Positions 43,863 through 52,996 of a stretch of 64,000 nucleotides of DNA are shown piece after piece. Position 1 is the stretch's first letter. Each line of letters starts with the position of its first letter. Both the position numbers and the translations under genes were made by a program. Location of the stretch: IMG/VR virus record IMGVR_UViG_3300030202_003282, positions 52,754 to 116,753 of that record, one strand, 5' to 3'. The notes below the pieces were generated by a model. The model was not told the DNA's origin. It worked only from the letters and a program-made list of their open reading frames with translations, and did no database searches. Source of the stretch: a virus.

Positions 43863-44594
43863 TCACTCAAAAAACCTATCATCTAATTCAAGATTTAAAT
43901 TCTTAAATTGATTGTGGTAAATTTCATGTTGATCAGGTGCATACCGATACATGTTTATAGAATCTTCTACTTTTCCAGCATTAATTCTATTTTCTAACAG
44001 TTTTTTACTTAATTCTTCAATAGATAATTTTTCAAGATTATGTTTAAATACTTTATATCTATGATTTAAACGATTTAACATTTCAATACTAGCAAAATGG
44101 TTATGCAAATGTAAACCAGATTTTATTTCTTTGTATTCTATATTAATTTGTAAATCATTTAATGCTGCATGTTTTATTTCAAAATTCATTGATGTATGAA
44201 TATCATTTTTATCATCAGCATGTTTATATTTAAATCTTATTCCAGGAATATTACCTATACCTATAATTTCTTCATGCATATGTTCACTTAAAGATTCAAG
44301 TTTATTTTGAAGTTTATTGGTTAACTTAATTTGTTTAACATAACAACTGTATGTTTTATTTTTATTAATCCAATATTTTTGGCTTGTATATCCACCAAAA
44401 TATGTATTAGAAAAATCTAATATTTGATCATCATCATGGTTAAGCATACTAATTCTTCCTTGATGACCTTTAAATAGTTTATTACGATCAAATTTATATA
44501 TAGCAATACTATCCATAAAATTTGATTGTCTTGGTTGATTAGATTGTTTTTGTGATTTAAAGAGTTTATTAAAGTAATATTTTAAGTTTTTCAT
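43863..44594 (-). CDS. Hypothetical protein
   Basis: 243-aa ORF. Confidence 0.6.
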   Translation of the reverse strand: MKNLKYYFNKLFKSQKQSNQPRQSNFMDSIAIYKFDRNKLFKGHQGRISMLNHDDDQILDFSNTYFGGYTSQKYWINKNKTYSCYVKQIKLTNKLQNKLESLSEHMHEEIIGIGNIPGIRFKYKHADDKNDIHTSMNFEIKHAALNDLQINIEYKEIKSGLHLHNHFASIEMLNRLNHRYKVFKHNLEKLSIEELSKKLLENRINAGKVEDSINMYRYAPDQHEIYHNQFKNLNLELDDRFFE

Positions 44595-44614
44595 TGTTTT
44601 GGTTTTAAATAAAT

Positions 44615-44647
44615 AAAAAAAAGGATTACCAGTTTCCCAGTAATCCT
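44615..44647 (-). terminator. Rho-independent terminator
   Basis: Minus strand AGGATTACTG-loop-GGTAATCC followed by a T run. Confidence 0.7.
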
Positions 44648-44662
44648 AGCTATTGTATCACA

Positions 44663-44887
44663 TTATGCGTTAATGTGCTGACGTCTTTCTTTAGTGAAAG
44701 ATTTTCTTCTTTTGGCTATACGTTCATCTTCCTTTATAACTTCAAGGATTGCTGCGCCATAGCAAAGTGAAAATAAACATGTTGTTAATATAAGCATCTT
44801 AGCAATTATATTAGCTATAAAAACTAATGTTAATATTGCTACACAAATACTTAATGCAACAATAATGAAGTGAATATTTTTTTTCAT
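44663..44887 (-). CDS. Small membrane protein
   Basis: Two TM helices and a basic tail. Confidence 0.6.
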   Translation of the reverse strand: MKKNIHFIIVALSICVAILTLVFIANIIAKMLILTTCLFSLCYGAAILEVIKEDERIAKRRKSFTKERRQHINA

Positions 44888-45234
44888 GATTTAAATTTTA
44901 GGGTTATAGTAAAATATACAAATGGTAATAATAGAATATAACTAGGTATACGATGACCTTCTTTTCCAAAGCCAAAAGCTATTCCTTTAAAACTATTAGT
45001 TTCAAATTTAATTCCAGGCAATTCTGGTAATATTCTTACATGACTTAGTTGAACTAACATAATAATTGCTACAGATATAGTAGCTATATTCATTGCAGAT
45101 ACAATGGTTATAATTAACCAATCCCATGATATGTTATTACTTAATCCTAATAATACATCAGTTATTATTACTATAACTGGTAATAATACAGTGTAAATTA
45201 ATTTAAAAATTCTCTGAGTTGTTTTCTTTTTCAT
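44884..45234 (-). CDS. Membrane protein
   Basis: Two to three TM helices. Confidence 0.6.
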   Translation of the reverse strand: MKKKTTQRIFKLIYTVLLPVIVIITDVLLGLSNNISWDWLIITIVSAMNIATISVAIIMLVQLSHVRILPELPGIKFETNSFKGIAFGFGKEGHRIPSYILLLPFVYFTITLKFKS

Positions 45235-45353
45235 CTTTTTTTATGTTTGGTTTTACGTGAATATTTCTTTTTATTTTTTTGAATTGAAGGTTTCATTGCA
45301 TTATATATTTCCTGCATAGTAACCACAATTACTTTTAATGGTTTTTTATTCAT
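45231..45353 (-). CDS. 40-aa basic peptide with an ArfA-like tail (missing from ORF track)
   Basis: MNKKPLKVIVVTMQEIYNAMKPSIQKNKKKYSRKTKHKKR; ATGA overlap with the next gene. Confidence 0.55.
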   Translation of the reverse strand: MNKKPLKVIVVTMQEIYNAMKPSIQKNKKKYSRKTKHKKR

Positions 45354-45358
45354 GACAA

Positions 45359-45502
45359 TTATTTAAATGGACATACAGCTGGACATGCTTTTGTTTGATA
45401 ACAAGATTTACTTGTAGAACATGATGTCATAACTATACATGTGAGTATTATATAAGCTATTACTGTAAAATAACAAGCATTCATAAACTTTTCTTTTTTC
45501 AT
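45359..45502 (-). CDS. Small Cys-rich lipoprotein-like peptide, 47 aa (missing from ORF track)
   Basis: Hydrophobic stretch, 'MTSC' lipobox, then 'CYQTKACPAVCPFK'. Confidence 0.55.
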   Translation of the reverse strand: MKKEKFMNACYFTVIAYIILTCIVMTSCSTSKSCYQTKACPAVCPFK

Positions 45503-45540
45503 GGTTGAAGTTTTAAGTGATTAATAAAAATTAAAGTGAG

Positions 45541-45612
45541 TGGCAGTAATAGGATTTGAACCTATCTGTACCAGATCCATCATAAGAGCTATCATTCTTA
45601 TGTGGTACTGCC
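45541..45612 (-). ncRNA. tRNA-like element (acceptor stem and T-arm, non-canonical D/anticodon region)
   Basis: GGCAGTA/TACTGCC-A acceptor stem; T-arm ATAGG-TTCAAAT-CCTAT; 72 nt. Confidence 0.6.
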
Positions 45613-45619
45613 ATATAAA

Positions 45620-46380
45620 TAAAAGGCTGAGAATGTGACCTTTTTGTTCTAAGTTTATACTTGCCATTTCTGACTCAATTCACACGATGCATTACTGCAT
45701 GTACTTAGAATACACACGGATTAAGATGTCCGCCATCACTGCTATTGTAGATATAACTTCACTTTCAAACTAACTTCCCTGGAAGGATTAGGAGAGAACC
45801 ACCTCTCTTAGATAAATTTTACTAGATTCATTTACATTAGGCCTTGCGAGCTTTATCTGCACCTGTATATTACAACAGGATAAGTGTATTGTTGGGGTGT
45901 TTCCCACATACAATAGCCTTTACGTTAATTATGCTTTTAGTTATTGAACATTTTGGCGTTCTTTAAAAGGATTCAGGTTATTAGTAGAAGACACGTAAAG
46001 TTTATATAATCATGCCAGCTTTTGACCGGTTTAGACTATAACTTCTACTTACTTTCATGGGCCTCCCCATTAATCATTGTTTTAAATCTATTGTCACAGT
46101 ATTTCTACTAGCAACTAGATAAAATTCTAATAACAGCTTTTGATCCGGTGAGATCATACTACCATTACCTATCATAACGCTTATTGATGTTTCCATCTCA
46201 ACAACCAGCCTGTCTGATTGTCTATGCTACTGTATCACCTCAAGAGGATTTGATACACCATAACATAGATGTTACGATACCTTTCCGTGAAATGCATTGC
46301 TGCATCAGAGAGTTTATTCCATATTCAACTCTCTTTTATCCCATTGCTGGTTTATCCTTATGGCCACGAAGGCTGACCAA
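45620..46380 (-). ncRNA. Large, highly structured non-coding RNA candidate
   Basis: No credible ORF; many nested and long-range stems; GNRA tetraloops on the minus strand. Confidence 0.65.
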
Positions 46381-46488
46381 TACTTTTTAATAACAATTTC
46401 TAGGCACAAATAATGCTATACTAAATGTCATAACGACTTATATCTTACTTGGCTATAGGCTCTTTTATTTAACTGCCTAGAATTATTA

Positions 46489-46683
46489 TTATATTCCTTG
46501 TTCAAAATCATTAAGTTCATTGAACATATGATCCATTGCTGCTTCTTCAAAGCAAGTTTCTATATTACCCATCTTGGGTTTTGTTTCTATATCATCTTTG
46601 CATAGTTGTGTTAATGCTCTTTCAGGTGTGACATAACCTTCACTTACATCTTTCAGTAAGTTGTATGTTTGTTTTACAGTCAT
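46489..46683 (-). CDS. Hypothetical protein
   Basis: Likely start MTVKQ at 46683. Confidence 0.5.
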   Translation of the reverse strand: MTVKQTYNLLKDVSEGYVTPERALTQLCKDDIETKPKMGNIETCFEEAAMDHMFNELNDFEQGI

Positions 46684-46693
46684 ATAATTGTTT

Positions 46694-46972
46694 TTAAATA
46701 TTAGTAAGTACGTATCTTTTACGCTTAGACACGCAATCAAATATGCATAGTATTTTTTTTACTATAACATTAGTTGCTGTTTTATTAGGTTCTGTGATTA
46801 ATAATATGATGTCTTCATTATTACTTTCATCTACATATCCAATCTTATGTTTATCTAACATATCTTTTACGATATCATAAACTGTTTCTGCATAGTTATA
46901 AGCAACGAAGTGATCATTATTTCCTCTTGTCATTAAACTGTGAGGATAAATTTTTAATTCAAATGTTTCCAT
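46694..46972 (-). CDS. Hypothetical protein
   Basis: Likely start METFELK at 46972, after an A/C-rich leader. Confidence 0.55.
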   Translation of the reverse strand: METFELKIYPHSLMTRGNNDHFVAYNYAETVYDIVKDMLDKHKIGYVDESNNEDIILLITEPNKTATNVIVKKILCIFDCVSKRKRYVLTNI

Positions 46973-47010
46973 TGTTTTAGTTTTTGGTTGAGTTAATAAA
47001 ATAATAAATC

Positions 47011-47480
47011 TAGCCAGGTTGTATAGGTTCTGCACTACAATTTAAGTGACTCACTGCTGAACTCATAACGTGTCGGTCCCACCACTATAGCAACCTGACT
47101 AATTAATAATGACAAGGCAAAATACGTTAAAATCCTTGTCTGTGCAATTTTATCCATTACCCTCAACATATCTCTATGTATCCTGGTCTGCAATTTGTGA
47201 GTCCGTTTATTAAACCAGTTATTATCTCACATTTGCTTATTAAACACTCTTAGGTGATAATAAGAAGCCGGCTCTGTAATATTTTGCAGGTCACATGGAG
47301 CTCAAGAATTAAGAGGAGCTACCTCAACTTGAATACAATCAGAATCCTGTCTTTATAATTTCTGGTGGACCCCATGTGATTAATATCTTAAGCAGTTTTG
47401 ATTCATGCTTAGGAACCCACTCAACCACAAGATTCCGGATACCAATATGCTTATCCTGTATATAGAGAACATACATAGGA
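47011..47480. ncRNA. Second structured non-coding region (at least two elements)
   Basis: Multiple inverted repeats; no ORF. Confidence 0.5.
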
Positions 47481-47668
47481 AGAACAAAAGGTATTAAGTC
47501 TGTTTGTTTTAATTATAGTATCAGTGATAGCTATATTAATTATTACTGTGGTTGTAGTAAATATGGTGGTGATTAGTGGAAGAATGTGGTGTATGTGACC
47601 TCACTCTTAAAGATACACGCACAAATAAATAAAAATGTGCGTGCAATTAAAGAAGTTGGTGGTAAATA

Positions 47669-47866
47669 CTATGGTTTACCCTGACGTAACACTATTTTGT
47701 TAAGTCTTCTTGTCTCTTTAGTGTTGAGAAGTCTTTGAGACACTAGGTTTTGACCTATATAGTAGTTATAGTCAGTGTCCATGTCTTGTGCTATTTCTTT
47801 TACATATGCACTAATATCTCTTAATGCTATGTATTGTGCTGATCTGTATGTTTTCTTTTGTGCCAT
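47669..47866 (-). CDS. Hypothetical early protein
   Basis: Likely start MAQKKTY at 47866. Confidence 0.55.
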   Translation of the reverse strand: MAQKKTYRSAQYIALRDISAYVKEIAQDMDTDYNYYIGQNLVSQRLLNTKETRRLNKIVLRQGKP

Positions 47867-47951
47867 TGTTGTGGTTTTAGAGTGGTTAATAAGAAGTGCA
47901 CTGCCACAATTAAGTAGCAATGCACAGTAAGAATCAGAAACCCATTGAAGC

Positions 47952-48323
47952 TTATGCTTCAACAGGTAGGGCTGGATATAATCCAGTCTCCTTGAGAGTC
48001 TCTCTATCTAAGATAGGGTTAGACTTGTCAAGGTAGAATCCTTGCACAGGCGTGCCTTGTGCTAAAGGTTTCTTTTGCATTTTGGCAAACTCCGTGCTTC
48101 TGCTAAGGATTTTCTTGCCGTTAATCTTTAGATTAAGGGTGCCATATACAAGCTCACGCTTGTTGTCCGTTTCAAAAGATATTCCTTGAAACTTTGTTTC
48201 TTGGACTTTTGCAGGACTTTCTGTAAGCATAATGGTTACAGGTACACCATCCGGATAGTTCTTTCTATCAGCATGGTTCTTCTTATCATAAGCATAAGAA
48301 TAAAAATAGAGTGTTTCAGTCAT
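47952..48323 (-). CDS. Hypothetical protein; first gene of the leftward transcription unit
   Basis: 123 aa; visibly more GC-rich than the bulk of the window. Confidence 0.65.
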   Translation of the reverse strand: MTETLYFYSYAYDKKNHADRKNYPDGVPVTIMLTESPAKVQETKFQGISFETDNKRELVYGTLNLKINGKKILSRSTEFAKMQKKPLAQGTPVQGFYLDKSNPILDRETLKETGLYPALPVEA

Positions 48324-48532
48324 TTTTTTTCATTTAAAGGTTAAACATTGGGGGCCAACAGTGGCCGGGTTTTAGCTGGGGAGCAGAACATTAGAACCTT
48401 ATTACAATGCCAAACACACAATTTTTTACTAGGGGGGATAAATTTTTTTAAATAATTGGTGGGGGAATAAGTTGAATGTGTGAGACAAATTCAGTATATT
48501 ATTGTATAGAGATATTCATTTAACATACACAC

Positions 48533-48838
48533 ATGGAAGAACCTAATGAAGAAAATAGTGAGCTATCAAAGCTAACTGAAATGGAAATCTTATTGTTAGA
48601 ACAAGAGTTATTAGCCATGGCGTATGAGAACTCTTATCTCCTTATAACTGATAAGACTACCTTTGAGGATTTATTGGTTACTAAGCATAAGTCTGGTAAC
48701 TCAGCTATTCTAGCTCATGACCCTCATTTAGATCTTAACAAAGGTGAAGTGGAAAATATTATTGATCATTTTATTGATTTAGAAGAATATGAGAAATGCC
48801 AGGAATTAAAAGATGTAATAGATGTTGAGTGTAAATGA
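48533..48838 (+). CDS. Hypothetical protein with a C-terminal UVR-like motif
   Basis: 'IIDHFIDLEEYEKCQELKD'. Confidence 0.65.
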   Translation: MEEPNEENSELSKLTEMEILLLEQELLAMAYENSYLLITDKTTFEDLLVTKHKSGNSAILAHDPHLDLNKGEVENIIDHFIDLEEYEKCQELKDVIDVECK

Positions 48839-52729: not shown

Positions 52730-52996
52730 ATGCCAACACCAACAAATTTTATAGAAGTAGATATAGTTCAAGCAGTACTTGTATCTAATACAAATGTTAG
52801 TCCACCTGTTTTAACTACGGCATTTAAAGCCGGTAAAATAACTTTTAATCCAAATGAAATAATTTCTTATGGAGAGTATTGGGATCTAAATGCAACACAA
52901 TTTATAAGTGGAAAAACTCAAGTAACTCTTGGACTGACTGGATTTATTTATAATGGAACTCTATTAGATTTTGAAAAAGAATTACCTGCAATATAA
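52730..52996 (+). CDS. Hypothetical protein
   Basis: 88-aa ORF coupled to the next gene. Confidence 0.55.
   Translation: MPTPTNFIEVDIVQAVLVSNTNVSPPVLTTAFKAGKITFNPNEIISYGEYWDLNATQFISGKTQVTLGLTGFIYNGTLLDFEKELPAI

Follow-up and report, generated by a model that had tools for sequence, protein, structure and literature searches.

A probable far-diverged GOLLD RNA gene in a phage distantly related to crAssphage

The DNA examined here (the window) comprises 64,000 nucleotides (nt) of the IMG/VR record IMGVR_UViG_3300030202_003282, positions 52,754 to 116,753, the record being a virus genome of 116,753 bp that is rated complete. On the minus strand of the window, from 46390 (possibly ~46480) to 45616, lies a region that, with a probability we put at about 80%, encodes a structured RNA with two domains, ~775 to 865 nt long, from a far-diverged lineage of the GOLLD family. 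The case for homology is made by a full-length alignment of the window to the Rfam model, a graded series of intermediate sequences (loci L124, L071 and L113) and a shared order of helices.

The region had been picked out in a first-pass annotation as a stretch free of open reading frames (ORFs) and richer in GC than its surroundings. The longest ORF overlapping 45620 to 46380 is 68 amino acids (aa) long (46184 to 46390, plus strand, TTG start, translation table 11), which bears out the first of these claims. Reading TAG as glutamine gives no longer frame within the interval, and table 4 yields frames of 64 to 77 aa plus one of 94 aa that lies mostly outside it. A protein-coding reading was ruled out, as frames are short under all of these codes and the changes between relatives are both paired and compensatory. 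GC content is 0.360 in 45616 to 46390 compared with 0.290 in the whole window, 0.245 in the left flank (44000 to 45500) and 0.332 in the right flank (46500 to 48000); the stretch does exceed its surroundings, but the contrast is clear on the left side only. The minus strand folds with a free energy of −190.4 kcal/mol (z = −2.73, from 20 shuffles only) and the plus strand has z = −2.05, so that folding energy points in the expected direction but is a weak signal alone.

PHROG matches in the genome include a terminase, a portal protein, a DNA polymerase and a ribonucleotide reductase. By tblastn, the first of these has hits in 136 phage records; the 15 listed, at 24 to 25% identity and 89 to 91% coverage, belong to crAss-like phages or to unnamed fecal phages, with cr55_1, cr1_1, cr10_1, Carjivirus communis, CrAssphage spp. 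and one Bacteriophage sp. among them. The earlier label of crAss-like phage therefore stands, although identity this low makes the relationship a distant one. Public sequencing runs containing the RNA stretch are labelled marine, seawater or sponge metagenomes. Judged by terminase and run labels, the virus is a marine phage distantly related to crAssphage. Gene orientation switches at 48323 to 48822, where leftward genes end and rightward genes begin; the RNA is situated ~2 kb inside the leftward block, past four small ORFs without PHROG matches.

Rfam was searched by E value over 45300 to 46700 and at gathering thresholds over the whole window. In the former search, GOLLD (RF02032) was the only large-RNA family to match, aligning from 46049 to 45624 over model positions 1 to 416 of 416 with 50.7 bits (E = 5.6e-12). 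The model aligns on the minus strand, as the first-pass annotation had proposed. The alignment passes in order through P1 with its UCAAAAG loop, an A/U-rich linker, a CGCAAG hairpin, two small hairpins, a UAA-loop hairpin, an enclosing helix with a GNRA hairpin and a terminal hairpin with a UCUCA loop. The helices of the GOLLD 3′ domain are thus present in family order, and the same helices covary within the clade described below. We take homology between the 3′ half of the RNA and the conserved 3′ domain of GOLLD as shown. In the same search ROOL had no match at E values up to 10, and neither did any ribozyme, RNase P, transfer-messenger RNA (tmRNA) or intron; matches to the FdoG thermometer, cHP, mir-458 and CLRN1-AS1 were at chance level (E of 0.14 to 8) and were discarded. 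Three options had been left open at first: a GOLLD- or ROOL-like large phage RNA, a new class, or several tandem RNAs. The first holds, specifically as GOLLD. A new class is rejected on the strength of the alignment of the 3′ half with the whole GOLLD model and of the intermediates that link the two, and tandem RNAs are rejected because the halves keep a fixed adjacency in all 10 aligned copies.

Table 1. Features of the GOLLD-like RNA and its 3′ neighbour, in window coordinates
Feature	Position	Strand	Remarks
Core of GOLLD-like RNA, ~775 nt, both domains	45616..46390	−	Alignable across whole clade (alignment A2)
3′ domain, ~430 nt, homologous to conserved GOLLD 3′ region	45616..46049	−	Rfam RF02032
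5′ domain core, ~341 nt, covarying helices, GNRA/UNCG-capped hairpins	46050..46390	−	A2 helices 1-13
Candidate 5′ extension/leader, 7-bp closing stem CUAGGCA...UGCCUAG	46391..46480	−	Conserved in two near-identical copies only
P1-type long hairpin, inner stem with UCAAAAG loop	45983..46049	−	Rfam model positions 1-65
Pseudoknot helix 46000-45993/45925-45918	45918..46000	−	6/8 pairs altered on both sides (A2 helix 17)
Two small adjacent hairpins, A and B	45777..45807	−	Model R2, 33 distinct sequences
Helix 45710-45704/45653-45647 (6-7 bp) around GUAA-capped hairpin 45700-45687 and GAAA-capped hairpin	45647..45710	−	
Terminal hairpin with conserved CUCA-containing loop, then U-rich tract	45621..45644	−	Rfam model positions 401-416
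Aberrant tRNA-like element, 72 nt	45541..45612	−	Starts 12 nt after GOLLD model end

Covariation was tested on an alignment of ten copies (A2; 877 columns, 69% mean column identity), the rows being the window, L043, L047, L244, L194, L213, L182, L142, L231 and L124. RNAalifold predicted 150 pairs on this alignment, 93 of them kept with both sides altered in at least one sequence. P1 was omitted by the program because it crosses the helix that closes the linker. The final structure of 151 pairs drops seven RNAalifold pairs (four at columns 311-314/410-413 and three terminal ones) and adds P1, with the linker-closing helix as a pseudoknot. Paired cells make up 93.8% in this structure, compared with 78.1% in shuffled controls (0 of 500 reach the observed value) and 39 to 44% with slid partners. 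Pairs altered on both sides number 93 of 151, against 51 in shuffled and 18 to 26 in slid controls, and the covariation score is 0.521, against 0.237 and ~0.1, respectively. These figures are to be read with caution, since the ten rows represent ~5 independent lineages and the tested structure was derived from A2 itself; the advantage over slid controls is therefore partly built in. Both domains contribute to the signal: in the 5′ domain, for example, 9 of 10 pairs at columns 148-157/187-196 are altered on both sides, and the P1 helices (14 to 16 of A2) are 95 to 100% paired, with 10 of 19 pairs altered on both sides. Stem-preserving change in homologues, which the first-pass annotation had named as a check, is thus found, and both halves are under selection for base pairing. 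RNAalifold helix 26 (columns 718-723/748-753) is disfavoured, with only one pair altered on both sides; a competing pairing at 671-675/719-723 has more pair types and is supported by the alignment of model R2, described below.

Hairpins capped by GNRA tetraloops had been read from the sequence at 45687 to 45700, 46292 to 46305 and 46186 to 46197, together with a GCAA loop at ~45845, and all are present. Seven long-range stems had been proposed as well, four of which show compensatory change: 45647/45703 (6 of 6 pairs altered on both sides among relatives in A2, and 6 of 7 across 60 distinct sequences), 45918/45993 (the pseudoknot helix of Table 1), 45983/46042 and TGTATCA/TGATACA (4 of 4 pairs). 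The third of these is GOLLD P1, with an outer stem at 46049-46042/45990-45983 and a middle stem at 46039-46034/46011-46006. The other three stems have no covariation behind them. The bases of 45622/45915 are used by a covarying local terminal hairpin, 45644-45639/45626-45621, in which 5 of 6 pairs are altered on both sides in A2 and 4 of 4 across 60 distinct sequences in R1, a 118-position model of the 3′ end; those of 46203/46346 are likewise used by the covarying local hairpin 46222-46216/46207-46200, and the third unsupported stem is 45977/46127. Some stems had been suspected of forming pseudoknots, and this is the case for 45918/45993, as it crosses P1. The helix closes a variable linker (45982 to 45926; 57 nt in the window). 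No consistent register was seen by eye for a kissing pairing between the loop near 45900 and 45740 to 45750.

Copies of the RNA occur in phages with related terminases, and the RNA is thus a gene conserved across a clade of such phages, ~100 to 116 kb in size. Two near-identical copies (L001/L047 on one contig and L033/L043 on another) share 96 to 97% identity with the window. The closest distinct copies (L244, L194, L213, L182, L142 and L231) are 61 to 64% identical over ~750 nt, and L124 is 46% identical. Identity to the window's terminase is 81% for L142, 80 to 85% for L182 (gene split across record ends), 85% for L194 (partial), 66% for L244, 63% for L124 and 65% for L224, a second-tier copy; no terminase was found in the L231 record, which is 45% complete. 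Across the ten aligned copies the 5′ core measures 340 to 381 nt, the 3′ domain 403 to 443 nt and the linker 46 to 79 nt. An nhmmer profile of the clade 3′ domain matches 118 of 248 loci, whereas the 5′-domain profile matches 28 of 248. The 5′ domain is therefore less widely shared than the 3′ domain, in agreement with the layout described for GOLLD, a conserved 3′ region and a variable 5′ region (PMC12286853, PMC12990946). In record G016, copy L210 is close to the window's clade by RNA (profiles of 252 and 326 bits) and its terminase is only 32% identical over 250 aa, a mismatch that may mean that the RNA gene moved between phage lineages.

A blastn search of the phage genome collection gave no match to the RNA stretch. 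The endolysin-like neighbouring gene was found at 32 loci, only seven of them real relatives, and the RNA accompanies it in L001 only; a DNA search of five endolysin-relative records likewise found the RNA in G001 only, and Rfam searches of L004 to L007 at E ≤ 1 were negative. In IMG/VR, 93 stretches fit a three-motif pattern, and ~13 clusters of these are GOLLD-like by alignment (read by eye). The other stretches, including one 36-member cluster, are unrelated sequence by alignment, and L134, the sole addition from another pattern search, is unrelated GC-rich sequence.

A pattern built from what the window shares with L113, L071 and L124, equivalent to 21 bases, found at least 117 stretches in IMG/VR that fall into 34 clusters at 90% identity (loci L135 to L248). 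Most of these lie in transfer RNA (tRNA) or tmRNA islands of contigs of 80 to 410 kb. The Rfam GOLLD cut-off was reached by none of the 17 representatives searched, of the 34 clusters, and the threshold therefore misses the subgroup as sampled. R1 recognises 90 of 100 subgroup loci at E ≤ 0.01 and scores 102 bits on the window; across 60 distinct sequences, 17 of its 20 pairs are altered on both sides. GOLLD scores, as computed from sequence, grade from classical members (174 to 296 bits in ten representative loci, all above the Rfam cut-off) down to the window through L113 (108.5 bits), L071 (92.2 bits) and L124 (90.4 bits, E = 3.4e-22). The window aligns over its full length with L124. R1 also matches L113 (E = 0.0012), L105 (E = 0.008) and L110 (E = 0.053), with all three matches at the right 3′ end, and has no match in the 28 unrelated loci among the 46 loci searched.

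Several results, in addition to the limits of the covariation test, weigh against the assignment to GOLLD. The score of 50.7 bits is one third of the Rfam gathering score of 150, and the whole window gives no match at Rfam gathering thresholds. Standard annotation misses the RNA because its score lies so far below this cut-off, which is an operational threshold and not a biological trait. A strong Rfam hit had been expected to remove any novelty; the match is significant, but at a third of the gathering score it does so in part only. A profile search of the phage's own record with RF02032 gave no match at E ≤ 1, and L244, L142 and L231 had no GOLLD match at E ≤ 0.001 (61-kb search). Clade sequence profiles matched none of 16 classical GOLLD loci, and R1 matched 2 of the 16 at E < 0.1, both at the correct 3′ end, which is a weak outcome for the reverse test. 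At the Rfam pseudoknot (positions 137-146/289-298), 7 of 10 positions are pairable in the window, with the alignment read by eye, and a local covarying hairpin (A2 helix 19) takes part of the 5′ strand of this pseudoknot position. Several conserved GOLLD loops are replaced in the window. Furthermore, the whole 116.7-kb record is without a true tRNA (Rfam tRNA model at E ≤ 0.01; ARAGORN at default settings on the window), so that the usual tRNA-island context is missing. As a side observation, one of the 14 control genomes in the RF02032 search, that of Bacteroides thetaiotaomicron, contained a sub-threshold GOLLD match.

Such observations would be expected if the RNA belonged to a separate class of large RNAs, having in common with GOLLD only an ancestral 3′ module, with its own 5′ domain, changed loop contacts and a different assembly or function. 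The low score, the failure of all 17 subgroup representatives to reach the cut-off and the lack of a tRNA island fit this explanation, as do a 5′ profile that matches no classical GOLLD locus and two small loops, A and B, that deviate from the classical consensus and covary together. Nevertheless, the alignment to the GOLLD model runs from end to end and preserves helix order, and the scores grade continuously through L124, L071 and L113 to the classical members. A variable 5′ domain is itself a trait of GOLLD (PMC12286853, PMC12990946), and published GOLLDs already vary in the helices present and in subunit number (PMC12990946). We consider a separate class improbable, and place the RNA as a new branch of the known GOLLD family, not a new kind of RNA.

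The limits of the RNA differ slightly from those first given. The earlier 3′ boundary was right, whereas on the 5′ side the block conserved with the near-identical copies begins at ~46491. Relatives L194, L213, L182, L142, L244 and L210 have a different leader of ~100 nt, in which two hairpins are kept by compensatory changes. The true 5′ end is probably near 46480, and the RNA may be ~865 nt long rather than 760 nt, because the conserved block extends to ~46480 to 46490. A promoter scan found no promoter-like site on the minus strand just upstream of the RNA, and a terminator scan gave no call at the 3′ hairpin.

The region could also be something other than one free RNA, namely, two separate RNAs or the structured part of a longer leftward messenger RNA acting in cis on the neighbouring small ORFs. 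The results of the promoter and terminator scans are in keeping with this, small ORFs on the same strand lie on both sides, and no covariation-supported helix joins the 5′ and 3′ halves. However, the halves abut without a variable spacer in 10 of 10 aligned copies, and the domains of solved GOLLDs are likewise structurally separate within one chain (PMC12286853). Downstream genes vary between near-identical copies while the RNA is kept, which makes a cis effect on any one gene less likely. Such an arrangement is very unlikely, and a single two-domain GOLLD-like RNA is the reading followed below.

Directly 3′ of the RNA lies an aberrant tRNA-like element (Table 1). Its 7-bp acceptor stem is perfect and its T arm canonical; a D arm is missing, the long anticodon-type stem carries an 8-nt loop and CCA is not encoded. 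Against the Rfam tRNA model (RF00005) it scores 18.1 bits (cut-off 29, E = 1.4), with only the acceptor stem and T arm aligning. ARAGORN calls no tRNA here at default settings; once its threshold is relaxed, it reports a tRNA whose type is unknown and whose anticodon has 4 bases. The element folds at −25.1 kcal/mol (z = −3.56), and none of 200 shuffles does as well. Its slot is a recurrent one, as real tRNAs start 4 to 14 nt past the GOLLD 3′ end in 5 of 10 classical loci (L082, L091, L069, L097 and L089) and in L071.

RNase P and RNase Z recognise their substrates by the acceptor stem and T arm. In the window phage, RNase P could generate the 3′ end of the RNA by cleaving at the tRNA-like element, and in relatives without this element transcription would stop at the U tract that follows the terminal hairpin; this joint scheme is put forward tentatively. 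We prefer to read the element as a processing handle for RNase P, with a similar probability for a decayed tRNA or a recombination scar. The chance that the element has no role, being such a remnant at the point where the sequence departs from its closest relatives, is close to even. Homology with the two near-identical copies stops exactly at the RNA 3′ end and different genes follow: the window continues with the tRNA-like element and a 47-aa ORF (45359 to 45502), and the near-identical relatives, both lacking the element, continue with a different ORF. The element occurs in none of the nine aligned relatives, which have no tRNA within 360 nt downstream, a finding that also counts against the GOLLD assignment as a whole. 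Exact copies of a 21-nt string from its T arm and acceptor stem are absent from the viral and genome contig collections, and the low tRNA score and missing D arm agree with decay. Against a remnant without function stand the intact acceptor stem and T arm, a fold better than that of all 200 shuffles, and a slot and spacing identical to those of real tRNAs past classical GOLLDs.

The two small hairpins of the 3′ domain would, from their position, be P21a and P21b of the published numbering. Hairpin A has its stem at 45807-45803/45796-45792 and its loop at 45802 to 45797; hairpin B has its stem at 45786-45784/45779-45777 and its loop at 45783 to 45780. Model R2, which describes the pair, matches 60 of 100 subgroup loci, and the 60 matches were aligned to give the 33 distinct sequences. 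In these, the loop-loop column pair 31:49 is GC in 23, AU in 8, CG in 1 and otherwise in 1, with no one-sided change, and the neighbouring pair 32:48 is CG in 31 of 33 and otherwise in 2. The AU variant occurs in the L244 group and in L201/L224, which are separate tiers, and CG in L231. The loop centres of the window are complementary (GG at 45800-45799 in A and CC at 45782-45781 in B); because loop A has 6 nt, they match only at a one-column offset, and one of the window's two loop-loop cells is scored as unpaired. The aligned sequences thus indicate that two adjacent hairpin loops covary with each other, a contact within one chain and one between chains being indistinguishable from sequence.

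Very few natural RNAs are known to form large cages free of protein, GOLLD among them. Solved examples are env-38, an 833-nt RNA forming a 14-mer cage, and the 700-nt Streptococcus agalactiae GOLLD, a 12-mer (PMC12286853, PMC12990946). By analogy, the window RNA would assemble during infection into a symmetric, RNA-only multimeric cage, with its variable linker facing inward, and in the window lineage the small hairpin loops would pair with each other and not each with its own copy. This combination of cage assembly and pairing between loops A and B is somewhat favoured. A more specific proposal, which we regard as speculative, is that the GOLLD scaffold has been rewired: loops that would correspond to the self-pairing loops joining cage halves in the solved structure may now pair together, creating a different interface between the halves and perhaps another subunit number, and the tRNA-like tail may be retained either as a handle by which host RNase P acts or to decoy host factors that bind tRNA. 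If true, such a tail would tie the cage to tRNA biology in a phage without tRNAs.

The stretch is present in 20 of 24 listed sequencing runs, six of which are on record as RNA. In these six RNA runs, from five studies, 70 to 82% of the sampled words of the stretch are present. The RNA runs hint at expression, with the reservation, again unfavourable to the proposed RNA gene, that such runs can carry DNA.

Compared with known GOLLDs, the window RNA is likewise phage encoded, ~0.8 kb long and two-domained, its 3′ domain aligns to the full Rfam model with helix order kept, and it has the loop motifs UCAAAAG, CGCAAG and CUCA, a variable linker that follows P1, a variable 5′ domain and a tRNA-type element directly 3′. 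It differs in its Rfam score (50.7 bits against a cut-off of 150), in its host, a marine crAss-like phage, and in having one aberrant tRNA-like element in place of a tRNA island. Further differences are a covarying pseudoknot helix that closes the linker, an enlarged loop A, and complementarity between loops A and B in place of self-complementarity. With the wider IMG/VR subgroup, which includes L071, L113 and L124, it shares the core CUUAUC...UGNAAYAUR...CYCGCAAGG, the 3′-terminal helices, the pair of small hairpins and Rfam scores below the cut-off. Most subgroup members differ in lying in tRNA islands of larger contigs and in having GC-centred loops A and B, whereas the window's clade is without nearby tRNAs and has a 5′ domain found in just 28 of 248 loci.

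ROOL is also a large ornate RNA of phages and prophages that forms cages and lies near tRNAs (PMC12286853). The window has no match to it (RF03087) at E values up to 10, and sequence and fold are unrelated. Both kinds occur together in L113 (225 to 1606, minus strand), where a true ROOL (261.5 bits, 1606 to 1017) lies ~366 nt upstream of a GOLLD-like 3′ domain (651 to 225, 108.5 bits). Two cage-forming RNA families are thus arranged in tandem inside a dense tRNA island, and ROOL and the GOLLD-like RNA are therefore separate genes.

Whole-word searches found no literature joining GOLLD with crAssphage, crAss-like phages or Crassvirales, although the supplements of PMC12286853, with their alignments and covariation tables, may include subgroup sequences. 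The finding extends the GOLLD family to marine crAss-like phages. The Rfam cut-off hides a large part of the family, as the failure of the sampled representatives to pass and the number of IMG/VR stretches with the subgroup pattern illustrate. Natural variants in which putative inter-subunit loops have changed together are useful for testing how cage geometry is encoded, and a tRNA-like tail in the slot of real tRNAs bears on whether 3′ processing by RNase P belongs to GOLLD maturation.

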